Shown in pieces: positions 13,746-25,354 of a stretch of DNA of 64,000 bases. The notes under the pieces were generated by a model. That model searched no databases. It was not told where the DNA came from and saw only the letters and a program-made list of their open reading frames with translations. Source of the DNA: an uncultured Holophagales bacterium (GTDB lineage: Bacteria; Acidobacteriota; Thermoanaerobaculia; Multivoradales; UBA5704). Position numbers and translations under genes: made by a program. Within the stretch, counting starts at the first letter, position 1, and each line of letters starts with the position of its first letter. The stretch covers positions 142,125 to 206,124 of the forward strand of contig CAWJQA010000009.1 in NCBI GenBank assembly GCA_963844885.1, written 5' to 3'.

Positions 13746-14672
13746 ATGCGCTGCCGATTCATCACCGCCGACGTCTTCACCAGCCGTCCCCTGGAGGGCA
13801 ATCCCCTGGCCGTCTTTCCGGACGTCCGGGGCCTCTCCGACGGCCTCATGCAACGGATCGCCCGGGAATTCAATCTCTCGGAGACGGTCTTCGTATTTCC
13901 TCCGGACGATCCGGCCCACACCCGCAAGCTGCGAATCTTCACGCCCAAGACCGAGCTCCCGTTCGCCGGCCATCCGACGGTAGGCACCGCCTACGTGCTG
14001 GCCGCCCTGGGTGAAATTCCGCTGACCGGAGACGATACCCGCATCGTGTTCGAGGAGGCCGTGGGCCCTGTGCCGGTCCGGATCCTCTGCGAGGCCGGCC
14101 GGCCTGTGTTTACCCAACTTTCCGTGGCGCAGCTTCCCGAGATCGGCCCACCGCCGCCGCTGGCGCCGGAGCTTCTGGCCGAGATGCTCTCTCTCGATTC
14201 TGGCGACGTGATCAGCGACGGCGAGGATTTTCCTCAACCCTTTTCCTGTGGCAACGCCTTTCTTTTCGTTCCATTGAGCAGCCGGGACGCCTTGCGCCGC
14301 GCCCGTTTGAGGATCGATCTCTGGGACAAGCTCCTCGCCGACACCTGGGCCTCGAAGCTCTATCTCTTCTGCAAGGAGCCCGAGCTGCCCGGCTCGCACT
14401 ATCGGGCGAGGATGTTCTCTCCGGCGCTCGGCATCGGTGAGGACCCCGCCACCGGAGCCGCCGTCTCCGCCTTCGGAGGCTACGTCGGCCTCCGTGCCCG
14501 GGAGGCGGATGGCACCGTGAGCCGGGTCGTCGAACAGGGCTTCGAGATGGGCCGCCCGAGCCTTCTCCACCTGGAAGTGGACAAGCAAGCCGGCGAAATC
14601 ACCGCCGTGCGGGTGGGCGGCGCCTCGGTGATGGTCTCGGAAGGGGTGATGGAGGTGCCGGAAGGCTTATAA
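13746..14672 (+). CDS. PhzF-family isomerase
   Basis: N-terminus [24 protein letters not shown] and ..FNLSETVFV.. are typical of the PhzF/YddE family. 308 aa. Confidence 0.88.
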
Positions 14673-17600
14673 TCTTTCCAAAACCCGCCGCGCCCTCTCC
14701 CGCTGCTCGCCGTTGGCGATCACCGCCATGTTGGTGGCGAGGCGCTCCCAGAGCTCGCGGGCCTGCCGGGGACGATGAAGGGCTTCGAGCGCCGTGGCCG
14801 CGGCTTCGAGCAGAAAACCGCTGTGAACCTCCAGCCAGCCGCGCGCCGTCTTCGCGCGGATCCGGCGCAGGACATCCATCAGACGGACCGGGTCGAGCCG
14901 AACGAGAATTTCGACAGCACGCGGATCGCGCCGCCGGGATCTGAAGCTACGCCACAGGTGATCGGCCAGGCGCGGCACGAACAGGCGGCGGACGAGGTCG
15001 TCCGCACCGGCCTGGACGCCGAGGGTGGCCGCAGTGATCAATACCTGGTCCGGCAGCGTGCGGCACTCGGCCGCCGGCCTCAGCAGCGGCACCGCCAACT
15101 CGGGTCTCTGAGCCAGCTCGGGCAGGTCCAATACCAGCGGGATCGTCACCTCGTTCAGGTCGGCCGGCTTGAGCCCCCGCCGAAGCTCGGCGATCAGGTC
15201 GGCCGGGTGGACCCGTGCAAGCTTCCGGCGCAGCTCCGAACCCTCCTCCAGGCAGGCGAACCGGTGTCCGAGATCCAATGGTCCGTCGTCGTACCAGTCG
15301 GAGGCGACCAGCGCCGGCACCTCCCCATCCGGAACCCGGCGCGTTCCCATGCGTTCGGCGAGGTCGTCCGCGAAGTCTGAACAGATCGTTTCAAATCCCA
15401 GCGTGCCGTCGTGGCAGTAGGCCTGAAACACGAGCAGCCAGCCGTCGCCCGTCAGCGCCAGCAGGCAGCGGCCCACCACCCGGCCCGCGTCGTCGCGCGC
15501 GTAGATCACGCGTTTGTTGATGTCCGCGGCGTTGGTGAACACGGAAAAATAATTGAACGACCCGGGGCTGAGACAGGTCTGGAAATGCCCACCCATCCGG
15601 AACACTTCGAGCGGATCGTCCTCCAGCTTCAGGTGCAGCCGCAGCTCTCCCGCCTGGCCTTCGGCGGACACGGTGCGCGTTCCAACCCCGTCGAGCCACG
15701 GTGTCCAGTCCAGATGCGCCAGGCGCTCGCGGAACGAAAGGTTTTGCGGCGCGTCGCGGAAATCCCAGGGCGGCGGGCCGCACCGCTCGCAGAAGAGCCG
15801 CCAGGCCAGCGTGCGATGGCGGGGCTTCAGCCGGGCCGCGGTCGCCACCAGCGTGAGATTCTCCGTCCCCACCATCCAGGCGGGGACCTCCTCGATGCCG
15901 ATCAGGCTGCGGAGCGCCTCCGGCAGATGCGTGTCCAGATCGCGCTCCCAACGCTCCAGGATCGTCCGGCCGCGGGCGCGGTCGAGCTTCGTGCGCAGCC
16001 GCTCGATCCGGGCGGCGCTCAGAGTCGCCGGCCGTTCGAGCCGAGCCCGAAGGTTCGCAAGCCGAGTGTTGAGAGCCGGCTTGCGGTCCTCTTCGGCCTG
16101 TTCGAGCCGACCCTGGATCGCTTCGATCTCCCTCTCCAGCCGCCCCGCGGTGGGAAGATCCTCCGCCAGCCAGCGGCCGACCCGGGCTTCGGCATCCTCC
16201 AGCACGCCGGCCAGCCGGCGGAGCTGCGGATGAAGCTCGTCCGGATAGCCTTCCATCCAGGCCGGCATGCCGGCGGCAGGCTCGCCGAGGACAGGGAGAG
16301 GCAGAGGCCGGACCCCCGCCGCGCCGAGGATGATCGACTTCACGACGCAGGCCAGCAACCGCGACAGTTGCCGGGTCAGCACCGACTCCCGGATGAAGTG
16401 GACGAGATCGCCGGAGCTGAGCGGTTCGAGAACGGCCTCCGGCCATTCGCTCAAGAGGAGCCCGAAGTGCTGATCCGGGTCTGTGAGGGCTTTCAGCACG
16501 TCCGCGAAGCTCTCGGGCCGGCTCCGGCAGAGCCGGACGGCCAGCCGGACCGCATCGCTCGAATCGTAATCGTGAAGGCGGCCGGCTTTGATCAGCGAGT
16601 CCAGGAGCGCCGCCACCAGCGCGGGATCGCGGGCGAGGCCCGGATCGCCGGCCTGGAAGAACAACTCCACCACCCTCGTCGCCTCATCCCGCCCGAGCCC
16701 GCCGCGGATCTCCGCCACCGCGGCGAGATGATCGTAGACGTCCAGGATCTGCTTACGGGCCTGGTCCCCCTCTATCTCGATTTCATCTTCGACGAAAACG
16801 TGCCGCATACTCAAGCCGGCCTCGGCCCAGGGACGTAGCAGCGCCTTCGGATCGGCGACGGGCCTCCGCTTCAGGTAACGCTCGAAGCCCGCGAGCATCT
16901 TGGGAACGGAAGACTCGGGCTCGCCGGCCAGAGTGCTCCAATACAGGAGGAGCTGTGTCCGGCCGGGCGTCCGGCCGGAATTGCCGGCCTCGGCGGGGAT
17001 GAGCTCCAGAGCTCGGGCCAGCGGCTCCGTCCAGGCCGACGCCTCCGGCTTCGACGTCCGGCGCAGCCTCTCCAGCAACTCGGCGGCCCGGAACGCGGAT
17101 GGAGCCGCCTTCTGATGTATCTCCACTCGCCTGCGGAGCGCGTGGCGCGACCTTCTCTCGTAGTGTTGGACCGTGACGCCGCGCGCCTCGCGGAGCAGCC
17201 GGCGGGTCGTCTCCCACCAGGAAGCCCACCGCTCGACCGACGGGAGCGGCGTGGCCAGCGCGAACAGGCGGAGGCACAGGCGCTGGGTGCGGCGGCCCTG
17301 CCGGATCACATCCTCGCACCACAGAACGAGATGAGAACCCAGATTGCCGGAAGGCAAGGTCTCCGGCAGCGGCGCCGTGGGCCGCTTCGCGATCGCACCG
17401 AGAATCTGGGCGCAGATCTCTTCAGAGCACGTTGCCACCTCGTAGATACGCGGGTCGAAGAGGCAGGACGCCAGCGGCTCGACCGGCTCCCGGCCATGCT
17501 CCGCCGCGAGCTGCAGGAGCCGCAGGGCGGTCACCAGCGCCCGATCCCGGCCCAGGCGCTCCGTGAGCAGCTCGAAACCGCCGGCCCAGCCGACGGCCGC

Positions 17601-18155
17601 TTCGAGCATCGCCCGTCCCCTTCGCGGATCGCCGGCCTGGACCCAGGCGAGGGCGTCGAGAAGAGGCCGCAGGCGGGGCTCGGCCTCGGCCATCCGCGCC
17701 GCCCGGTCGCGGAGTGACCGCGGCTCGAAAAGATCCTCGAAGGCGCGAGGCGGGAGCGGACCGCCGTGATGGATCGCACCCTTGAGCAGCTCCAGGCGCC
17801 GCTCGATCGACTCCATCCACCGGTCCGGTTCGTCCGCGAGCCGCGGCAGAGCCGGCGCCAGCTCCGTCCGCAGCTTGTTGAGCGCGTACGTCGCGCGGCT
17901 GAGATGCCGGCCGTCGAGGGTGACTTCTTCCGCGGGCGCCTGCACAGGCACGGTGATCCAGCGCACGCCGTCCGCCGCGGCCTCGACGGGAAAGCCTTCG
18001 AGCCATCCCAGATTGGCCGCCTGCAACATCTTGGCGCGCGCCGCCATGGCGCTCTTCGAGGTCTCCTTCCGCGGCTCAGGACGCATCCGGAGAGCATGGC
18101 ATGGTCCGGAAGGATTCGGAGCCGCGGCGAGTGGAGGGAACGACTCGTTCCCCAC
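14667..18155 (-). CDS. Large hypothetical protein (up to 1162 aa); start uncertain
   Basis: Uninterrupted ORF with helical-repeat-like composition and no domain I recognise. The track start at 18155 is a GTG inside repeat unit 1. Alternative ATGs lie at 18086, 18047 and 18029. Confidence 0.65.
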   Translation of the reverse strand: MGNESFPPLAAAPNPSGPCHALRMRPEPRKETSKSAMAARAKMLQAANLGWLEGFPVEAAADGVRWITVPVQAPAEEVTLDGRHLSRATYALNKLRTELAPALPRLADEPDRWMESIERRLELLKGAIHHGGPLPPRAFEDLFEPRSLRDRAARMAEAEPRLRPLLDALAWVQAGDPRRGRAMLEAAVGWAGGFELLTERLGRDRALVTALRLLQLAAEHGREPVEPLASCLFDPRIYEVATCSEEICAQILGAIAKRPTAPLPETLPSGNLGSHLVLWCEDVIRQGRRTQRLCLRLFALATPLPSVERWASWWETTRRLLREARGVTVQHYERRSRHALRRRVEIHQKAAPSAFRAAELLERLRRTSKPEASAWTEPLARALELIPAEAGNSGRTPGRTQLLLYWSTLAGEPESSVPKMLAGFERYLKRRPVADPKALLRPWAEAGLSMRHVFVEDEIEIEGDQARKQILDVYDHLAAVAEIRGGLGRDEATRVVELFFQAGDPGLARDPALVAALLDSLIKAGRLHDYDSSDAVRLAVRLCRSRPESFADVLKALTDPDQHFGLLLSEWPEAVLEPLSSGDLVHFIRESVLTRQLSRLLACVVKSIILGAAGVRPLPLPVLGEPAAGMPAWMEGYPDELHPQLRRLAGVLEDAEARVGRWLAEDLPTAGRLEREIEAIQGRLEQAEEDRKPALNTRLANLRARLERPATLSAARIERLRTKLDRARGRTILERWERDLDTHLPEALRSLIGIEEVPAWMVGTENLTLVATAARLKPRHRTLAWRLFCERCGPPPWDFRDAPQNLSFRERLAHLDWTPWLDGVGTRTVSAEGQAGELRLHLKLEDDPLEVFRMGGHFQTCLSPGSFNYFSVFTNAADINKRVIYARDDAGRVVGRCLLALTGDGWLLVFQAYCHDGTLGFETICSDFADDLAERMGTRRVPDGEVPALVASDWYDDGPLDLGHRFACLEEGSELRRKLARVHPADLIAELRRGLKPADLNEVTIPLVLDLPELAQRPELAVPLLRPAAECRTLPDQVLITAATLGVQAGADDLVRRLFVPRLADHLWRSFRSRRRDPRAVEILVRLDPVRLMDVLRRIRAKTARGWLEVHSGFLLEAAATALEALHRPRQARELWERLATNMAVIANGEQRERARRVLERL

Positions 18156-18510
18156 TCATCGAGAGGCTCGTCAAGGAGGGAACGAACCGTTCCCCGCTCA
18201 TCGAGAGGCTCATCGAGGAGGGAACGCCCCGTTCCCCGTTCATCGAGAGGCTCATCGAGGAGGGAACGAACCGTTCCCCGTTCATCGAGAGGCTCGTCAA
18301 GGAGGGAACGACCCGTTCCCCGTTCATCGAGAGGCTCATCAAGGAGGGAACGACCCGTTCCCCGCTCATCGAGAGGCTCGTCGAGGAGGGAACGACCCGT
18401 TCCCCGTTCATCGAGAGGCTCATCAAGGGGGGAACGACCCGTTCCCCATTGATCGAGAGGCTCGTCAAGGAGGGAACGACCCATTCCCCGTCATTCGGGA
18501 GGCTTACGCT
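18133..18510 (-). repeat. 42-bp tandem repeat, 8 full units plus 1 degenerate, each with the palindrome GGGAACG-N3-CGTTCCC; reads LLDEPLDERGTGRS on the minus strand
   Basis: Units were delimited by hand at 18133, 18175, 18217, 18259, 18301, 18343, 18385, 18427 and 18469. There are no unique spacers. Confidence 0.95.
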
Positions 18511-18829
18511 TTCGGCTGGACCGCCGACGAGGCCGCAGCCCGAACTCGACGAGCTGTTCGCTCTGGTGCCCGTAGTGGTCCTTGATCCAAGCGCGCATCG
18601 CCGTGGCCGTCTTGCGTCCGCTCTCCAGGGTTTCCTTGAGGGCCTCGCTGGCGGCCTGCTTCGCAGCCCGGTGGGCATCGCGCTTGGCGGCGAGCTCGAG
18701 GGCTTCCTGGTACATGGCCTGGAGCCGCTGGCGGTAGTCGTCGAGGATCGGAATGTCCTCCTTGCCGGCAAGCGAGTCGAGCAGCCGCCTCCACCCCTGG
18801 ACAGTGTTTCCGTGAGTATCCCGGGCCAT
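18491..18829 (-). CDS. Hypothetical small protein (112 aa from ATG 18829)
   Basis: ATG is preceded by GGAGGA. The helical, charged sequence MARDTHGNTVQGWRRLLDSL.. matches no family I recognise. Confidence 0.55.
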   Translation of the reverse strand: MARDTHGNTVQGWRRLLDSLAGKEDIPILDDYRQRLQAMYQEALELAAKRDAHRAAKQAASEALKETLESGRKTATAMRAWIKDHYGHQSEQLVEFGLRPRRRSSRKRKPPE

Positions 18830-18856
18830 GCTTCCTCCACGAGGGTCGTTCACGGA

Positions 18857-18886
18857 AATGTACCGGCGGGGCGGGTTGGGCGTCAA
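18857..18886 (-). promoter_or_regulatory. Putative sigma-70 promoter for the 112-aa gene
   Basis: On the minus strand: TTGACG, an 18-nt spacer, then TACATT, followed by GGAGGA and the ATG. Confidence 0.4.
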
Positions 18887-18915
18887 CGGGGTAGTGTGGC
18901 GGCCCAGTCGCCAGG

Positions 18916-18924
18916 TGGTATAAT
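18916..18924 (+). promoter_or_regulatory. Putative extended -10 element (TGGTATAAT) upstream of vapBC
   Basis: A perfect TATAAT with TGn immediately upstream, about 150 nt before the antitoxin start. The -35 is poor. Confidence 0.4.
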
Positions 18925-19075
18925 TGCTCAAGGGGAGGACAAGTCGTAGGCAGCAGTACCCCGGTCGAATGGTGCTCGCCGTCTGGGGATCATGCCCTCA
19001 GCCCGAGGCGGGTTCGTTGTTCGATAAGGTATTCTCCATGAAGCCGCTGGTTGCGGCAGGAAGCTGAGGAATCCC

Positions 19076-19345
19076 GTGATCAGGGTCAGTCTCAAGGAAG
19101 CCGAGGGCCGTCTCGGGCATCTGATGCAGGAGGTCGCCGCCGGCGAAGAGGTCGTCATTGCGAGCGCCGCCGGCCAGGCAGTGCGGCTCGTGCCCGTTCC
19201 TCAAGAAGGCAGGGAGAGCCAAGTCCCGAAGACGGTCGGACATGCTCTAGACCGCTTCATCGGCACGTGGACGGCCGAGCAGGAAGCCGAAGTCCTCAAG
19301 GCTGTCGAGATTTTCGGGCAGGTCGACGAATCCTTCTGGCAGTGA
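19076..19345 (+). CDS. Type II antitoxin (Phd/YefM-like) of a VapBC pair
   Basis: 89 aa, GTG start after GAGGAA, N-terminus MIRVSLKEAEGRLGHLMQEVAAGEEVVI. The stop overlaps the toxin start (GTGA). Confidence 0.75.
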   Translation: MIRVSLKEAEGRLGHLMQEVAAGEEVVIASAAGQAVRLVPVPQEGRESQVPKTVGHALDRFIGTWTAEQEAEVLKAVEIFGQVDESFWQ

Positions 19346-19752
19346 AGATACTCCTCGATACGAACGCCTATTCCGCCCTTCGGCGTGGCCACGAGGGTGT
19401 AGCCGAACTGATAATGCAGTCGGAACGGGTTCTCTTCTCGGCCGTCGTGGCCGGAGAGCTGCTGTTCGGTTTTCGGAACGGCTCCCGATACGAGGAAAAC
19501 GCTCGTGCGCTCGGGGACTTCCTTGAAGATCCGACTGTTCACCTGCTGCCAATCACCTGGGATACGGCAGATCTCTTCGGTCGTATTTCCGCCGAACTGC
19601 GCAGAAGGGGAAGACCCATCCCCACCAACGACATCTGGATCGCGGCGCACGCAATAGAAAAAGGCGCGGACCTCCTGTCCTCCGATCCGCACTTCGGCAA
19701 CATCGAAGGGCTCTCCTGGCGAACCTTTGTGTCATCCCAGACTACGTCCTGA
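19342..19752 (+). CDS. vapC: PIN-domain toxin VapC
   Basis: VKILLDTNAYSAL.. (first acidic residue), ..AGELLFG.., and ..NDIWIAAHA.. followed by ..LLSSDPHF. This is the typical PIN layout. Confidence 0.85.
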   Translation: MKILLDTNAYSALRRGHEGVAELIMQSERVLFSAVVAGELLFGFRNGSRYEENARALGDFLEDPTVHLLPITWDTADLFGRISAELRRRGRPIPTNDIWIAAHAIEKGADLLSSDPHFGNIEGLSWRTFVSSQTTS

Positions 19753-19767
19753 GCTACTGGCGTTACC

Positions 19768-19883
19768 TCGCCGCCTCGGATCGACTCCTCGCGCGGCACC
19801 CCGACGCGCAGGTCTGGACGATGCAGGTCGGCTCTCGATATGCCCGCCGCTTTGGACCACGCTTCAAGACGGCAGCAGCTTGA
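19768..19883 (+). pseudogene. 3' fragment of a paralogue of the 20247-20624 gene
   Basis: About 85 nt (19768-19852) are roughly 90% identical by eye to 20409-20493. It reads ..LAASDRLLARHPDAQVWTMQVGSRYARRFGPRFKTAAA* and has no start of its own. Confidence 0.6.
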
Positions 19884-20181
19884 CGGCGGCGTCGAGAGGG
19901 CCGTAGACCTCGGTGGCGAGCTCCTCTCCCAGCCAGATCCCGAGAAATCGCCGGCGGACCTCCTCCGGGCTCGCGTCGGGGTAACGGGAACGGATGCCGG
20001 CAAGCACGAGCGCCCGGGAAGCATCGTTGGCCTCCATGACCAGTCGGATCTTCCTCCATGGCGGCATCCGCCTGTAGATCTCCAACTGGATCCGCTCCGC
20101 TTCAGGATCGGTGTCCGGATAGAGGGTCCGGTAGGGGACCTCGTGAGGCTTGAGCTTCCGTGGGGGCTCGCTCTCGCTCAT
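19864..20181 (-). CDS. Hypothetical small protein (105 aa from ATG 20181)
   Basis: The ORF has plausible composition (..AERIQLEIYRRMPPWRKIRLVMEANDASRALVLAGIRSRYPDASPEE..). There is no SD sequence and no recognised family. Confidence 0.45.
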   Translation of the reverse strand: MSESEPPRKLKPHEVPYRTLYPDTDPEAERIQLEIYRRMPPWRKIRLVMEANDASRALVLAGIRSRYPDASPEEVRRRFLGIWLGEELATEVYGPLDAAVKLLPS

Positions 20182-20246
20182 GGAGGTTATGATAGCCGAA
20201 GCGGGCGACCAACTCAGGCCTCGTACCCAAGGGGAGGACAAGTCGC

Positions 20247-20624
20247 ATGGCAACGGTACCCCGGTCGGATAGGGAACGAGAGGAGATCGCCCGCCGAGGC
20301 GACGAGATCTACGGAACCAGGGTTCGGCCGCATCTTGGTTCGGAAGACGAGGGGAAGTTTGTCCTCATCGACATCAAGAGCGGGAACTATGAGTTGGATC
20401 GTGATGAAGTCGCCGCCTCGGACCGACTCCTCGCCCGGCACCCCGACGCGCACGTCTGGATGGTGCAGGTCGGCTCCCGATATGCCCGCCGCCATGCGGA
20501 GCGAAGTGGGCGGGAGAGGCCGAAAAATATCGTGGCCGAGTTGGCAGGTGCGTTGAATGGGGCGGATATCGGAGATCCCAAGAACGAATATACCGAGTAC
20601 CTCCTGAAGAAGTATGCTCGGTGA
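20247..20624 (+). CDS. Hypothetical small protein with a possibly chimeric C-terminus
   Basis: ATG follows GGGGAGGA with 8-nt spacing. The core ..GKFVLIDIKSGNYELDRDEVAASDRLLARHPDAHVWMVQVGSRYARR is shared with the fragment at 19768. The tail after about 20494 is lower in GC and resembles an antitoxin C-terminus (..EYTEYLLKKYA). Confidence 0.55.
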   Translation: MATVPRSDREREEIARRGDEIYGTRVRPHLGSEDEGKFVLIDIKSGNYELDRDEVAASDRLLARHPDAHVWMVQVGSRYARRHAERSGRERPKNIVAELAGALNGADIGDPKNEYTEYLLKKYAR

Positions 20625-20664: not shown

Positions 20665-21102
20665 ATGGATTCCATGGCTCCCGAGGAAAGAAGCGCGCTC
20701 ATGGCACGGATCCGTTCCACGGATACGGCTCCTGAGCTTGTCGTACGACGCCTCATGCACCGGATGGGGTTTCGCTTCCGGCTCCATCAAAGGCACCTCC
20801 CTGGGAAGCCTGACCTCGTCTTTGCGGGGCGCAAGTGCATTGTGCTGGTGCATGGGTGCTTCTGGCACCGCCATGGGTGCGGTCTTTCTTCGAAGCCAAA
20901 GTCAAACAGCGCCTATTGGGAGGAAAAGATCGCCGCTAACATGGCACGCGATACCCGGAACCGCCGCCTGCTCCGAAAGCTAGGCTGGCATGTGATGGTG
21001 GTATGGGAATGTGAGACTCGCCGAGCCGACCTCACTTCGCTCGCCCGCAAGTTGCAGCGGTTTCTAACTGTCACAAGGAAAACAGTGCCAACGCGTCGCT
21101 AG
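20665..21102 (+). CDS. vsr: Very-short-patch repair endonuclease
   Basis: ..RSTDTAPE.., ..LPGKPDLVF.. and GCFWHRHGC.. are typical Vsr motifs. 145 aa. Confidence 0.9.
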   Translation: MDSMAPEERSALMARIRSTDTAPELVVRRLMHRMGFRFRLHQRHLPGKPDLVFAGRKCIVLVHGCFWHRHGCGLSSKPKSNSAYWEEKIAANMARDTRNRRLLRKLGWHVMVVWECETRRADLTSLARKLQRFLTVTRKTVPTRR

Positions 21103-21108
21103 AGATGC

Positions 21109-22269
21109 TCACAGCTGAGCCCACTTGCGGTAGGCTGTGGGGTCGTAGCGTGCGAGCTCTAGCAACCTGGCGGCCTCATCGATCATTTCGGTGTTCAGTG
21201 CTGCGTCTTCCCTGAGGATGCCATCCGCATCTTTGCGTCTCGCGATGCGGTTCATGGCCTTCACGGCCAGCGCACATTCGTCCAGCGAAGTATTTGATGG
21301 TTTCGCCAAGCCGACCGGATCTCCGGCGGGCTCGAAGGTCGGCGTGAAGCGTAAGGCTAGCGAAAAAAGATCCTCGTGCTTGACGCCCGGTTCAACGCGG
21401 TAGCCGATGACGCTTTTGACCTCGACTATCGTCGGAGGGCGATGCCTCAGAGAGATTACAGCAAGCCACTTGCATAGGCCGCACAGAAAAACTGGCAACA
21501 GGCCCGCCGGGTCTGCCACTGCCGCATTCAGCGCGGCCTGATCCTCTATTGCAAAGTATTCCCGCGACCTAGCCTTAAAGTCTGGGCAGCTAACGAGGTT
21601 GGCTAGATATTTTTCGATAAGCTTCGCCAGTGCTTCGGGATGCACGTGCTGTTGGCCCACGCGAGTCGTAAGCAGGAGCAGCCATGGACTCCAATTGCGT
21701 GCCTGCAACGCCATAAGCTTGTTCACGGCGTCGTAGTGCGTGTGTTCAAACGTATCAGGGGCATGCTGGCCAAATCCATCGCATAAGTCGAGGTTGATGA
21801 CATCAAATGGACCGAGTGTGCGCGCCTTTTTCCAGGCAATGGAAGCATCATTGGCGACGAGGACAAAATCGTCGGGTATGACATCGGAGCTCTGGTCGAC
21901 ACGCGGCATACGGCGCACCTCGTCGAGCGAAATGTTCAGCTCAGTTTGCTCCGGGCTCCTTGGCTGGGCAGCGTTATTGAAGCCAAGAAAGCGCAGTTTT
22001 ATATTGCGTGCCTCGCACACCTGTGCGTGGAAATAGCGCAGGTCGAGCAAATCGACACCGGGCAGGCCAAGGTACTTCAGTGTGCCGTCTGCGAGTGGCG
22101 AATCATCGAGCATTCGGCCAATCTGTTCACACCACTGATGGTGGCGCACGAACTGCTTGCGCGGCAGGTGCCACCGCAGGAAGTTTCTCTTCGCCGGCTC
22201 GGGTGCCTCATAGGCACCAGGTGAAACAATGTCGTCTGCGTGGCTGTCGGGCTGTTCGTCGTTCATCAT
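21109..22269 (-). CDS. Hypothetical protein (386 aa), third gene of the MTase/GHKL operon
   Basis: Its start overlaps the GHKL stop (ATGA at 22266-22269). Segments YLGLPGVDLLDLRYF and FDVINLDLCDGF faintly resemble Rossmann/SAM-methyltransferase-fold motifs. I see no nuclease motif. Confidence 0.6.
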   Translation of the reverse strand: MMNDEQPDSHADDIVSPGAYEAPEPAKRNFLRWHLPRKQFVRHHQWCEQIGRMLDDSPLADGTLKYLGLPGVDLLDLRYFHAQVCEARNIKLRFLGFNNAAQPRSPEQTELNISLDEVRRMPRVDQSSDVIPDDFVLVANDASIAWKKARTLGPFDVINLDLCDGFGQHAPDTFEHTHYDAVNKLMALQARNWSPWLLLLTTRVGQQHVHPEALAKLIEKYLANLVSCPDFKARSREYFAIEDQAALNAAVADPAGLLPVFLCGLCKWLAVISLRHRPPTIVEVKSVIGYRVEPGVKHEDLFSLALRFTPTFEPAGDPVGLAKPSNTSLDECALAVKAMNRIARRKDADGILREDAALNTEMIDEAARLLELARYDPTAYRKWAQL

Positions 22270-24263
22270 TCTTCAGGAGCGGCGAGAATTTCGTAGATTG
22301 CCTTAAGTAGTCTTTCCTGCTTGTGCTCGGAAACGGCGTCCAGCAGGCCGAACGATGCCAGCACCTGCGCAATCGACTTTAGCTTCGCTTCGAGTATCGC
22401 TGAGCGTGCTTCCGCTTGCCCCGTCTTCCTTCCCTGCCGAGCAGGCACGATGGCCGATTTCTTGAAGACGAAGGCATCGCCGGATGAGGAGGGGGTCTGG
22501 CCAGATTCCGAAAACTCGATCGCAGGTGGCCGCGCGGCGGGATCGCCAGCCTCCTGTGTCCAAACGTCGTTCGCGACCCGCTGAATGGCCGACAATCTGC
22601 CTTGCGTGCCCTCCTCAAGTGTCTGTTCCCGTACCCCACTGGCAAGGCGCTTCTGCGCGGTGGCTAATTGCCGAAGCGCGCTGTGCAGCCACCTCGTGAT
22701 GTAGACTGCATGCGGATGCGCGTTATTGAAAGATTCGCGGTCGATGTTGAGGGCGCTGTCCAGTCCTTCGCTAACAAAAATCTCGCATGTAATCTGGCGA
22801 AGCCTCGTCTGTTCCGCTACCTGGTAGCGCATGAAAGTAGGGTCAAACAGGGTGCCGCTTGAGCCATGAATACGAATCAGCGAACCCTGATGCTCGGTTG
22901 GTGCCACCTTGGGTGTCCAGAAAAGGTATGCCTCGAAAGCAAGTGGGCCGCCGCTGAGCTCCCGCTGAATCTTTGGAAATTCCTCGCGGCACTTGCCAAG
23001 GAACACGAGCGGCTTCTTCAAGGCATGGCCTGTCGTAGGCAGGCCTTTAAACTTGATCGGGCGAAAAAGCTGTAGATCGTCGAGATAGATCTCAAACTTT
23101 TCAGGCTGGCCCACAGGATCAGAGAGTCCTAGCTTCTCGCGGAGCGTCGTCCCAGGTTTTCTCGAATCGAGATCCTGGGCGGTTCTTTTTGGCTGATTTG
23201 AGAGCAGGAACGCCTCGGCCCAGCCGCCCAGGTCCATGTCGAACAGGTGTCCTTCGACGTAGGGTAGCGGCACAGCAAGGCTCAACTGCCAAACCATGCG
23301 GAGATAATAATCGAAGATGCGGTCTAATTGGGGATTGGGGCTAGTTTGATCCGCGTCTCTATCCCACACGCACTGCACAAGTTTGCCGAAAGCACCGGCA
23401 GGAGAGTCGTTCTCATCCCACGGCAGCGACGCGAACTGATTCGACGTTTTCTTGAGAAGTTGGGCCGAACTGTCGGAGCTATCGACGCGCCCGATGTGGA
23501 ACTTGGGTGGCTTGATGATCTGTTGATCCTCAGGTCCCTGAGAGCCCTCGTTCTGCTGGATTGCCTCCCAAATTTCGCGACTCCGCAATGTGTCGCGGGC
23601 TTGGGGCCGGATGCTCGTCAGCACGATCGTGGTTCCATGTGATTCAAGGTCGGCCGCCTTCTCGCGCCAAATGTTGACCTTGCCAGACTCGAACTTATCA
23701 TCGCCGCCGCGAGCAACAGCGATACCGTCATCAGAGTACTGCCGCAGCGCGACGGTGGCGACTGTGCGGAATCTGTCACCCTTAGTCTTGGTTATAATCT
23801 GAAACGAATATGTGAGCTGGGAGACAGAAAATAGGCCGATGCCAATCTTGCCAATCAGAAACCGGCCGCCCGGACTCCGAAGCGGATCAGCACCCGTGAT
23901 CTCCAGGAGCGGGCCGGCCTCGCTTCGCTTTGCGCTGCCGCCAATGTGGAATAGCATGTGAGCTAGCGCTTCCGGAGTCATGCCGTGCCCATTGTCCTCA
24001 ACCATGATACGATCAAAGCGCGGGGCGTCGGTCTTAATAACGACACAGGTCGCGTCAGCGTCGTATGCATTTGAGACTAGTTCGCGCAGCGCTGATCCGG
24101 GCTGCCGGTAAATGCCGTCAGTTATCCGCGCGATTACACGCTGATCAGTCTTTAGCGTAGTGCGGACAAGGTTGTCGCCGCTTTCGCTACTGCGGATAGA
24201 AGCAGCGAGCTCGTGTTCCTCATGGACTTCGTTCGCTTGGCGTTCGGGCGGCGTGGAACTCAT
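22266..24263 (-). CDS. GHKL-superfamily ATPase (HATPase_c_3 / MORC-Hsp90-like), 665 aa
   Basis: N-box ELVSNAYDA, G1 EDNGHGM and G2 IGKIGIGLFS. The start overlaps the methyltransferase stop (ATGA at 24260-24263). Confidence 0.8.
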   Translation of the reverse strand: MSSTPPERQANEVHEEHELAASIRSSESGDNLVRTTLKTDQRVIARITDGIYRQPGSALRELVSNAYDADATCVVIKTDAPRFDRIMVEDNGHGMTPEALAHMLFHIGGSAKRSEAGPLLEITGADPLRSPGGRFLIGKIGIGLFSVSQLTYSFQIITKTKGDRFRTVATVALRQYSDDGIAVARGGDDKFESGKVNIWREKAADLESHGTTIVLTSIRPQARDTLRSREIWEAIQQNEGSQGPEDQQIIKPPKFHIGRVDSSDSSAQLLKKTSNQFASLPWDENDSPAGAFGKLVQCVWDRDADQTSPNPQLDRIFDYYLRMVWQLSLAVPLPYVEGHLFDMDLGGWAEAFLLSNQPKRTAQDLDSRKPGTTLREKLGLSDPVGQPEKFEIYLDDLQLFRPIKFKGLPTTGHALKKPLVFLGKCREEFPKIQRELSGGPLAFEAYLFWTPKVAPTEHQGSLIRIHGSSGTLFDPTFMRYQVAEQTRLRQITCEIFVSEGLDSALNIDRESFNNAHPHAVYITRWLHSALRQLATAQKRLASGVREQTLEEGTQGRLSAIQRVANDVWTQEAGDPAARPPAIEFSESGQTPSSSGDAFVFKKSAIVPARQGRKTGQAEARSAILEAKLKSIAQVLASFGLLDAVSEHKQERLLKAIYEILAAPEE

Positions 24264-25354
24264 TGGCCGAGGAGCGCTCTCTTTACAGCCTTCGCAATGC
24301 TGCGCGCGAGCGGCGGTGGGACGGCATTGGACACTTGCTCTACCTGCTCCGACAAGTTGCCTTCCAAAACGAACTTATGTGGGAAGCCCTGCAGGCGCAA
24401 TGCCTCGTAGATACTGATCCTGCGGCTTCCATTAGGATGGATATAAATCTCCCGGTGGCCAAACGCGATCGTTGGACTCGCTTTCTGCCAGTCTAGCCGC
24501 TTGAAGCTGCGTCCGTCCACTCTCGCTGCGTCTGGAGCACCAAAGCGCTGTGATTTTGGTGTCATGGTCCAATGGTTAGGATGTACAGGAATTTCCAATG
24601 GAGAAAGGCCGCGCCTGTAGAACGCCGGCGGCTTCAATCCACCGATAGCTTCGCGAACTGTCGACTTGCCCTTTCGTTTTCTTGGCCGCACCTCAGTATA
24701 TCCTTTGCCCCTGCGCATGCCTGACAGCACAATCCTGCGGCGATTCTGCGGCACACCGAAGTCTAAGGCACAGACTTCTTCTTCCCTGGTAGCGAAGCCA
24801 AGGTCGGAAATCCCATTGACAAGCGCCTGGTAGGTGGGCGCGTGCTTTTTGTCGCGGATGCCGAGCACGTTTTCAAAGACGCAGAACTCAACGCTGTAAG
24901 TTTTCTGCAGCTCAGCGATGATTTCGCGGTAGACATCAGGAAGTCTGTTGCGCGGGTCGTCGGCTTGGGCGCTCGTGTTTGCCCGCGAGAAGCCTTGGCA
25001 GGGAGGTCCGCCGATTACGCCGATTCGTTCGCCAGCGCGAATCGATTTCGCAACCAAGGCAGTCACGCCTACAGGTTTTAACTCAATCAGATCAGCGGCG
25101 GCGCTTTGGGTCTCAGGAAAATTCCGTCTATGCGTGCGAAAGGCGGCTTCCGAAGAGTCGATGGCGACCACAATCTGGAAGCCTGCGTCCTTGAATCCAA
25201 GGTCCAGTCCGCCGGCGCCTGAGAACAAGCTTACTATTTTAGGGAGTTCGATGGGCGCCTGAACGGCAGTGGGTAGCGGAGCCACGGCCTTCAGCGGGCT
25301 GGCTGATTCGGAGTACTCCATGCGGACAGCGTCGTGCCTCATTTTCGCGCTCAT
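24260..25354 (-). CDS. dcm: DNA (cytosine-5)-methyltransferase
   Basis: Motif I LFSGAGGLDLGF, motif IV GGPPCQGFS, motif VI FENV, motif VIII QNRRR and motif X SNAVPPPLA. Confidence 0.93.
   Translation of the reverse strand: MSAKMRHDAVRMEYSESASPLKAVAPLPTAVQAPIELPKIVSLFSGAGGLDLGFKDAGFQIVVAIDSSEAAFRTHRRNFPETQSAAADLIELKPVGVTALVAKSIRAGERIGVIGGPPCQGFSRANTSAQADDPRNRLPDVYREIIAELQKTYSVEFCVFENVLGIRDKKHAPTYQALVNGISDLGFATREEEVCALDFGVPQNRRRIVLSGMRRGKGYTEVRPRKRKGKSTVREAIGGLKPPAFYRRGLSPLEIPVHPNHWTMTPKSQRFGAPDAARVDGRSFKRLDWQKASPTIAFGHREIYIHPNGSRRISIYEALRLQGFPHKFVLEGNLSEQVEQVSNAVPPPLARSIAKAVKRALLGQ

Follow-up and report, generated by a model that had tools for sequence, protein, structure and literature searches.

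In the ATP-dependent restriction systems CglI and NgoAVII, a 5-methylcytosine (m5C) methylase accompanies a two-subunit R-and-N enzyme, made up of a PLD-nuclease/B3 subunit and an SF2 helicase-like ATPase. GHKL ATPases known as paraMORCs, encoded with DCM and Vsr proteins, were predicted to be components of restriction–modification (R-M) systems by Iyer, Abhiman and Aravind in 2008 (PMC2292703). The C-terminal domain of paraMORC5 is described there as carrying a conserved HxH motif, a possible new nuclease site. In VcSduA/paraMORC3, a GHKL ATPase is fused to a Shedu DUF4263 nuclease of the PD-(D/E)xK type, and this protein is proven to be anti-phage (PMC12137116). HEF_HK (PF19191)/Response_reg_2 (PF19192) pairs, found beside C5 methylases, were read as two-component-like by Bellieny-Rabelo et al. 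2021 (PMC8011034). By that paper's account, a GHKL gene with a HATPase_c_3 domain is tightly linked (91.6%) to an uncharacterized partner gene, and the authors relate these pairs to the paraMORCs. The subject of this report is a further GHKL gene with a partner gene, located in a 64,000-nucleotide (nt) stretch of DNA from an uncultured Holophagales bacterium (GenBank assembly GCA_963844885.1, contig CAWJQA010000009.1, positions 142,125 to 206,124). This whole stretch is referred to as the window. The GHKL–partner pair is a real, conserved and uncharacterized system of the class predicted in outline in 2008. New here are the fold of the partner, the Hsp90-type ATPase, a second conserved core within the ATPase and the exchangeability of the methylase. 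The 2008 study had been cited, correctly and to the point, in an earlier sequence-only reading of this DNA by a model (PMC2292703). That reading also held that the layout has no described mechanism. In keeping with this, a literature search found no paper on the pair or on the fold of the partner, and PADLOC 2.0 does not recognize the arrangement.

Four intact genes lie where the sequence-only reading had placed them. The features are as follows.

20665-21102, plus strand: Vsr very-short-patch repair endonuclease, 145 amino acids (aa); PF03852 1e-30, TIGR00632 7e-42
21109-22269, minus strand: PP_RS20740-family partner protein (the earlier 'orphan'), 386 aa; NF047698 2.8e-116, PF28273
22266-24263, minus strand: predicted GHKL ATPase, paraMORC-like, with an Hsp90-type N-domain, 665 aa; PF13589 2e-14, residues 56-175 only
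23574-24236, minus strand: predicted ATPase domain of the GHKL protein, approximately aa 10-230; N-box E61/N65, G1 D90-G94, G2 G138-S146
22644-22943, minus strand: second conserved core of the GHKL protein, aa 441-540, from column identity over 21 diverse GHKL proteins
24260-25354, minus strand: predicted Dcm-type m5C DNA methyltransferase, first gene of the operon, 364 aa; PF00145 8e-47, full length
24260-24263, minus strand: ATGA stop/start overlap from Dcm to GHKL, 'caATGAgt' as read on the minus strand
22266-22269, minus strand: ATGA stop/start overlap from GHKL to partner, 'gaATGAtg' as read on the minus strand

Both overlaps were read directly, and coupling joins the three minus-strand genes into a single unit, as had been proposed. 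The Vsr gene converges on this unit: the 6 nt spacer already described lies between its stop (tag, 21100-21102) and that of the partner gene (21109-21111; tca, read as TGA on the minus strand). Promoter and terminator scans gave results at chance level. The window contains many other intact open reading frames (ORFs) of 800-1279 aa, contrary to the remark that few long genes besides these are free of frame disruption.

The conserved unit is the two-gene GHKL–partner pair, not the three-gene operon. Evidence comes from 80 genomic loci, which were found when a set with a single genome for each species was scanned with an alignment; a scan of the same set with a single sequence found nothing. The loci span at least six phyla (Pseudomonadota, Bacteroidota, Actinomycetota, Chloroflexota, Acidobacteriota and Latescibacterota). 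In 79 of the 80, the partner gene directly follows the GHKL gene on the same strand; the remaining locus is cut short by a contig end. Translational coupling, with an overlap or a gap of at most 25 nt, is seen in 78 of these 79. In identity matrices, pairwise identities among the GHKL proteins correlate with those among the partners at r = 0.965. The two proteins are always co-encoded, coupled and co-evolving, and almost certainly act as one complex. The sequence-only reading had envisaged a three-gene restriction or defence module. Comparative genomics favours the defence or R-M role, and reduces the core to two genes with an interchangeable methylase. The neighbourhood survey suggested earlier, for company of homologues of the 386-aa protein with GHKL, Dcm and Vsr genes, gave linkage in 79, 67 and 19 of the 80 loci, respectively, and a defence-island context. 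The entire Dcm–GHKL–partner–Vsr module is also present in a Chloroflexia metagenome-assembled genome (MAG; L068:3957-8459), split into many short ORFs, and is apparently a decaying copy.

The Dcm-type enzyme is, as judged from its motifs, a complete m5C DNA methyltransferase. TIGR00675 matches above its cut-off (3.5e-41), PF00145 extends over the full length, and motifs I, IV, VI, VIII and X, which had been noted before, are all present in the translation as FSGAGG, PPCQGFS, ENV, QNRRR and NAVPPP. The protein looks active, with every catalytic motif, as is expected of the methyltransferase in a Type II R-M system. The nearest solved relative is M.HaeIII (6e-29), and the top PADLOC model is DruM2/MTase_II. 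Methylases of this type lie within 7 kb of the pair in the 67 linked loci, where subfamily, size, position and strand all vary. Forms of approximately 360 aa (co-oriented, upstream), 510 aa (upstream), 600 aa (divergent) and 340 or 440 aa (convergent, downstream) are found. In the clade of the window, the methylase is operonic and its stop overlaps the GHKL start. Identities of Dcm and of the pair correlate at only r = 0.61. In one comparison (L024 with L035), the GHKL proteins are 83% and the partners 75% identical, and the Dcm proteins 29%. The methylase is exchangeable between pairs, and swapping between such close pairs is what is typically seen when a toxic effector has recruited a protective methylase. 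Vsr had been presented as the companion of m5C methylation. It does occur alongside a Dcm each time, in variable position and strand, but in only 19 of the 80 loci by phmmer (17 of which are also grouped by clustering of neighbouring ORFs). Vsr is an optional accessory tied to Dcm, outside the GHKL–partner core.

The GHKL protein carries an N-domain that is an intact Hsp90-type ATPase, not MutL- or MORC-like. The ELVSNAYDA (N-box), DNGHGM (G1) and GIGLFS (G2) motifs that the sequence-only reading had picked out in the 665-aa protein are present. The N-box, G1 and G2 residues are invariant, PF13589 is found in all 21 of the diverse GHKL partners, and an N-terminal GHKL domain with conserved ATP-binding motifs is a property shared with the paraMORCs. 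Assignment of the protein to the MutL/MORC type had to be abandoned. The best matches of the GHKL profile in the PDB are the N-domains of GRP94/Hsp82 (2e-7), and hhalign pairs the family with E. coli HtpG at a probability of 96.8% over columns 51-164, which is the ATP-binding core, with nothing aligned beyond. The top 50 Foldseek matches of the model are all Hsp90 N-domains (target template modelling (TM) score approx. 0.6), a result that informs on the N-domain only, as the model is poor beyond residue 230. Source annotations name these proteins just 'ATP-binding protein'. Several closer identities were considered and rejected. MutL models reach 16-40 bits against cut-offs of 180-937, over the N-terminal 60 or so residues only. 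A full Hsp90/HtpG chaperone is excluded in that only the N-domain is homologous, and NF010683 and NF003555 are far under cut-off. Full-length membership of the BbrUII/HgiDII family (NF050001) fails at 60.8 bits against a cut-off of 550, with only profile positions 16-173 of 659 covered. The sequence 'LNIDRE' was dropped as a candidate for the catalytic-arginine motif of the Hsp90 middle domain: the HtpG alignment is confined to the N-domain, and the likeness to an Hsp90 'LNxSRE' has no statistical support.

Beyond the ATPase domain, a second region is equally well conserved. Mean column identity of the 441-540 core is 0.75-0.81 over the 21 diverse GHKL proteins, equal to that of the ATP motifs. 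Invariant positions are K452, R464, D474, E484, R487, E494, N506, D508, R509, E510, N513, H516 and H518, the last two forming an HxH motif (H516-P-H518) that is invariant across the GHKL partners. Profile and Pfam searches with segments 225-440, 415-560 and 520-665 found no relatives (for the 441-540 core, up to a Pfam E-value of 10), and the core gave two chance-level matches only to PDB profiles (E 0.72 and 0.84). The low-confidence model places four strands and a helix at 441-515, with no profile match to S5 or transducer domains. The core is a candidate transducer and/or catalytic site. The profile and structure searches suggested earlier had a divided outcome: a family and fold were found for the partner, and relatives for the GHKL N-domain, but none in Pfam or, above chance level, in the PDB for GHKL residues 230-665. 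The GHKL protein is proposed to be an ATP-driven clamp or motor, possibly the catalytic subunit of an effector.

The 386-aa protein is not an orphan, but a member of a large curated family without assigned function. It matches NF047698 ('PP_RS20740 family protein') at 389 bits against a cut-off of 200, residues 11-384 aligning with profile positions 4-383 of 384. PF28273, named simply PP_RS20740, is assigned to an identical protein and to all 120 homologues among the matches listed. An exhaustive search of 1.84 billion representatives returned 607 clusters at 50% identity; among the 150 clusters listed, nearly all members stand alone at approximately 390 aa, and none is a fusion. In the sole paper mentioning the namesake gene, PP_RS20740 is called a hypothetical protein and carries a furfural-tolerance mutation. 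PADLOC 2.0 contains no match to the partner. The earlier statement that no nuclease domain is visible stands; what fails is the claim that the protein has no family, given the full-length NF047698/PF28273 match and a methyltransferase-type fold.

This fold is visible only by structure, sequence-level searches being null. The AlphaFold2 model of the partner, built with 27 homologues, is confident (predicted local distance difference test (pLDDT) 85, predicted TM score (pTM) 0.85) and has the class-I methyltransferase strand order, with a seven-stranded Rossmann-type fold and a C-terminal beta-hairpin. In Foldseek searches of the PDB and of the BFVD viral models, the named top matches are almost all S-adenosylmethionine (SAM)-dependent methyltransferases (among them M.BseCI, KsgA/Erm and HNMT), with probabilities of approximately 1.0 and E-values of 1e-5 to 1e-3, but with a TM score of approximately 0.3 and identity near 10%. 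Sequence and profile searches of the PDB gave no match, hhalign against E. coli KsgA gave a probability of 0.3%, and no profile or hidden Markov model (HMM) similarity to any methyltransferase family or structure was detected. The predicted structure has a very divergent class-I methyltransferase-type fold. On inspection, the canonical motifs are absent: there is no GxGxG, no acidic residue ending strand 2 and no (D/N/S)PP(Y/F/W), and alignments and model agree that the SAM motif I, strand-2 acidic and motif IV features of class-I enzymes are lacking. Family-specific sequences take their places, GLPGxD after strand 1, FLGFN at strand 2 and NLDLCDGF after strand 4. An N-terminal WHxPRKQxVR is invariant in the family, and the invariant residues are W33, H34, R37, K38, R42, Y66, P70, G71, D76, S128, N159, D161, Q189, W268, Y290, S303 and D349. 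We read the partner as a probable pseudo-methyltransferase, or a SAM or DNA reader, with an active enzyme as the alternative.

Unbiased clustering of all neighbouring ORFs in the 80 loci revealed no widely recurrent neighbour besides Dcm. The 126 nearest non-core ORFs include integrases, helicases, and homologues of McrBC, AspBHI-type, ApeA-HEPN, HamB, DruE, MkoA, TmtA and SngC proteins, mixed with housekeeping genes; in particular clades, the flanks also contain an MmeI-type enzyme and more integrases. Integrase and defence-gene neighbours point to a defence or mobile-island context. The methylase, Vsr, helicase and nuclease genes of paraMORC neighbourhoods are all represented, with SNF2, NOV_C and HNH proteins in an actinobacterial subset. 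Six actinobacterial loci (L049, L050, L054, L055, L056 and L058) show a four-gene set with the pair, comprising an unknown protein of approximately 481 aa, an SNF2 helicase, a NOV_C protein with a restriction endonuclease (RE) fold and an HNH nuclease. This set resembles the helicase and RE-fold operons described by Iyer and colleagues in 2008 (PMC2292703). A clade of Acidimicrobiia/Poriferisodalis sponge-symbiont MAGs (L025-L037) has an MmeI-type IIG enzyme 0.1-3.3 kb downstream of the partner in L026, L027, L029, L030, L034 and L037; its domains were read on L027 and assigned to the other five by cluster membership. Two multi-megabase contigs (1 and 2) of Pseudomonas fungipugnans carry the GHKL–partner–Dcm module at each of their ends (L072-L075). 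An ApeA-HEPN gene lies upstream where that flank is present (L072, L074, L075), a helix-turn-helix regulator downstream in all four, and an integrase farther downstream in L073 and L074, these domains having been identified on the homologous locus L069. This distribution points to a mobile element present in several copies, at which the assembly breaks. In a Dcm-less Streptomyces locus (L051), an m5C-dependent Type IV enzyme of AspBHI_N+Mrr_cat architecture (L051:8360-9589) begins 148 nt after the partner, and a KAP NTPase is encoded upstream.

The favoured interpretation, judged to have about an even chance of being right, is that Dcm and the GHKL–partner pair constitute an ATP-dependent, R-M-like defence module in which the GHKL–partner complex is the effector. 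The argument draws on several lines. These are the operon structure and intact, invariant ATPase motifs; the conservation, coupling and co-evolution of the pair; methylase linkage in 67 of the 80 loci, with swapping; defence and integrase neighbours, and a low-GC island beside a toxin–antitoxin pair; the invariant polar cluster of residues 441-540, which has no known homologue; the methyltransferase fold of the partner; and the precedents of the predicted paraMORC, DCM and Vsr associations and of VcSduA. The latter is proven anti-phage and supports a defence role for such ATPases, though its architecture differs. In the proposed mechanism, the methylase would mark host DNA with m5C. A dimeric GHKL clamp would be loaded or licensed by the methyltransferase-fold partner, which would serve as a reader of DNA or base state and is probably catalytically inactive, or as a SAM sensor. 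The clamp would then spend ATP to act on DNA lacking the mark. Damage could come from GHKL residues 441-540, the core with the invariant D/E/N/HxH positions, or, in actinobacterial variants, from an adjacent stand-alone nuclease (HNH, or a NOV_C/RE-fold protein with an SNF2 helicase). Vsr would repair the T:G mismatches that arise from deamination of the m5C mark. The restriction activity of the pair is inferred.

A number of observations weigh against this interpretation. Pfam, NCBIfam, PADLOC and PDB sequence and profile searches detect no nuclease fold or motif in either protein, confirming the earlier view that no conventional restriction endonuclease is encoded; a Type II endonuclease of the PD-(D/E)xK, HNH, PLD, GIY-YIG or half-pipe fold is found in neither. 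The AlphaFold2 model of the GHKL protein is unreliable past residue 230 (pLDDT 61, pTM 0.40), and a catalytic role for the 441-540 core is consequently a guess. No Dcm lies within 7 kb of nine intact pairs, most of which are actinobacterial. These pairs are flanked variously by HNH nucleases (L053, L059, L062, L063), by an SNF2 helicase and a NOV_C/RE-fold protein (L049, L050), or only by a transposase and an integrase (L071 and L079); L053 is additionally near a Type I HsdR. Among the ORFs scanned in Dcm-less loci, no substitute methyltransferase was found. Such pairs, one of them beside the m5C-dependent AspBHI/Mrr enzyme, are awkward for a strict model in which unmethylated DNA is attacked. 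No segment of the GHKL or partner protein diverges specifically upon a methylase swap, as a specificity cassette would. Either sequence is not read by the effector itself, or the methylases that replace one another have the same specificity. Searches of 72,556 plasmids and 50,697 phages yielded no member of the family. The two proteins match no named non-R-M defence system in PADLOC 2.0, where only weak N-terminal GHKL matches to two REase_II models occur. Finally, the only experimental phenotype found for PP_RS20740 is the furfural-tolerance mutation, which is unrelated.

Several other explanations therefore stay in play. The pairs without Dcm, their HNH, SNF2 and NOV_C or AspBHI_N+Mrr_cat neighbours and the absence of a specificity element co-varying with the methylase could be accommodated by a self-contained sensor/effector independent of missing methylation, which would be either modification-dependent (Type IV-like) or infection-triggered. 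Dcm would then be a frequent, non-essential neighbour that serves another island purpose or supplies a host modification distinguishing foreign patterns. This is considered rather unlikely. As the sole widely recurrent neighbour, Dcm occurs far more often than island co-residence would produce, its stop overlaps the GHKL start in the clade of the window, and a modification-dependent nuclease that shared its operon with an active m5C methylase would turn on its own host, unless their specificities differed. It also seems unlikely that the pair serves the methylase, whether by bringing in or stimulating Vsr or other repair at sites of m5C deamination, as an accessory of the MutL kind, or by controlling the sites and timing of Dcm methylation. 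E. coli MutL, a GHKL ATPase, does stimulate Vsr, according to the discussion in PMC2292703. Vsr abuts the partner gene in the window, and 5-methylcytosine is the theme common to Dcm, Vsr and the AspBHI-type neighbours. Yet Vsr is an infrequent companion, some pairs have neither Dcm nor Vsr, the ATPase domain is Hsp90-like with every MutL model failing widely, and the context is that of defence islands. Moreover, solitary Dcm–Vsr modules work widely without such proteins.

It is quite doubtful that the partner adds a second modification, as an active methyltransferase or some other enzyme that uses SAM. Together with the ATPase, it would then provide a BREX-like, non-nucleolytic exclusion. A methyltransferase-type fold in a model of high confidence, with invariant residues at the places of class-I motif I (Y66, P70, G71 and D76 after strand 1) and motif IV (N159, D161 and C163 after strand 4), is consistent with this proposal, which would also account for the Dcm-less pairs. 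It is opposed by the missing canonical motifs and the lack of HMM-level similarity to methyltransferases, and a protective partner would make the near-universal extra Dcm redundant. Nuclease-free silencing is likewise quite unlikely. Here a MORC-like GHKL dimer would clamp and compact DNA lacking the m5C mark, blocking its replication or expression uncut: the pseudo-methyltransferase would read the cytosine-methylation state, and the Hsp90/MORC-type ATP clamp would entrap and inactivate unmarked DNA. The lack of a detectable nuclease fits such a mechanism, as do reports that MORC-type GHKL clamps entrap and compact DNA (PMC8277788) and the DNA looping proposed for paraMORCs by Iyer and co-workers (PMC2292703). 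The invariant acidic and histidine cluster at 441-540, however, looks catalytic rather than structural, and nucleases are recruited in actinobacterial variants. Last, a cytoplasmic two-component-like signalling pair, histidine-kinase-like and response-regulator-like, is highly improbable. The gene order of C5 methyltransferase, GHKL, partner and downstream Vsr is the one described in PMC8011034, but PF19191 occurs in none of the 21 GHKL partners, PF19192 or any REC domain in none of 41 partner-family members (E-value up to 1), and no DHp domain was found. The ATPase is Hsp90-like, not kinase-like, and the partner fold is of the methyltransferase type, not the CheY type.

The operon resides in a low-GC island. 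GC content falls from approximately 0.69 to 0.57 over roughly 19-26 kb of the window, and the same island holds a second system.

19076-19752, plus strand: Phd/YefM antitoxin and PIN toxin, a type II toxin–antitoxin pair outside the system described here; PF02604 7.6e-4 (weak), PF01850 4.4e-16

On the Dcm side, the island is bordered by housekeeping-type genes for an N-acetyltransferase, a HIT protein and a sensor kinase. Between the toxin–antitoxin pair and Vsr are two divergent small ORFs without a Pfam match (19864-20253, minus strand, 129 aa; 20247-20624, plus strand, 125 aa), which may be further island cargo. At the island edge, a 146-aa ORF (18491-18931, minus strand) has a weak match to the H-NS N-terminal domain (E 0.007), which may reflect a gene of the xenogeneic-silencer kind or may be due to chance. 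The left edge also carries a 42-bp unit repeated 8.9 times (90% matches; 18133-18504), which is open in several frames and lies just upstream of an intact 1162-aa ORF (14667-18155, minus strand) with no Pfam family at an E-value of 0.01 or below.

If the pair is a restriction component, it would represent an enzyme class without a recognizable nuclease, in which an Hsp90-type ATPase is combined with a pseudo-enzyme shaped like a methyltransferase, and which tolerates replacement of its cognate methylase. The prediction of 2008 that MutL/MORC-like ATPases act in R-M, which has had almost no direct experimental follow-up, would thereby be put to the test, with a bearing on the way in which the MORC proteins of eukaryotes came to be tied to DNA methylation. 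The systems that current defence-finding tools miss would be joined by one that is widespread yet rare, with at least six phyla and approximately 600 clusters at 50% identity. Were silencing the correct explanation, the pair would parallel in bacteria, with its logic inverted, the link between MORC and DNA methylation in eukaryotes, and would form a new class of restriction that leaves DNA uncut. The namesake PP_RS20740 belongs to the tractable P. putida KT2440, where the hypothesis is directly testable if the arrangement is the same. Pseudomonas relatives of the pair are 28-30% identical.

Among the closest known systems are the paraMORCs. Shared features are the N-terminal GHKL domain with intact ATP motifs, the neighbourhood of cytosine methylase and Vsr, lateral mobility and, in some lineages, adjacent SFII/SNF2 helicases, RE-fold proteins and HNH nucleases (PMC2292703). 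The HxH core of the GHKL protein fits the verbal description of paraMORC5 in that paper, and the protein may belong to that family (PMC2292703). Two differences stand out: an obligate methyltransferase-fold partner gene is not described in the main text of PMC2292703, and the ATPase here is nearest Hsp90, not MutL or MORC. With the HEF_HK/Response_reg_2 pairs, the present locus shares an upstream C5 methyltransferase gene, a GHKL gene with its partner and, as that paper's description has it, a Vsr gene often directly downstream of the partner (PMC8011034). The families here match neither PF19191 nor PF19192, and the partner fold is of the methyltransferase type, not a receiver; the two kinds of pair are analogous, or very distantly related at most. 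VcSduA also has a GHKL ATPase that controls a DNA-targeting effector in a defence island, and its defence needs the ATPase motifs (PMC12137116). It differs in being a single polypeptide with a recognizable nuclease and without methylase or partner; DUF4263 is absent from both proteins here.

The BbrUII/HgiDII enzymes (NF050001; PADLOC PDLC03419, PDLC03485), which are filed as Type II restriction enzymes, are similar in size (approximately 660-700 aa) and in their N-terminal GHKL domain. NF050001 is the best NCBIfam match of the GHKL N-domain, over approximately 160 N-terminal residues, and the C-terminal two-thirds are unrelated. These enzymes are not known to require a second subunit. CglI and NgoAVII differ from the present system in their parts, as neither a PLD-nuclease/B3 nor an SF2 helicase-like domain is found in the GHKL or partner protein. 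Their logic is nevertheless alike, a three-gene operon in which two proteins restrict only together and with NTP hydrolysis, and they are the nearest functional analogue.

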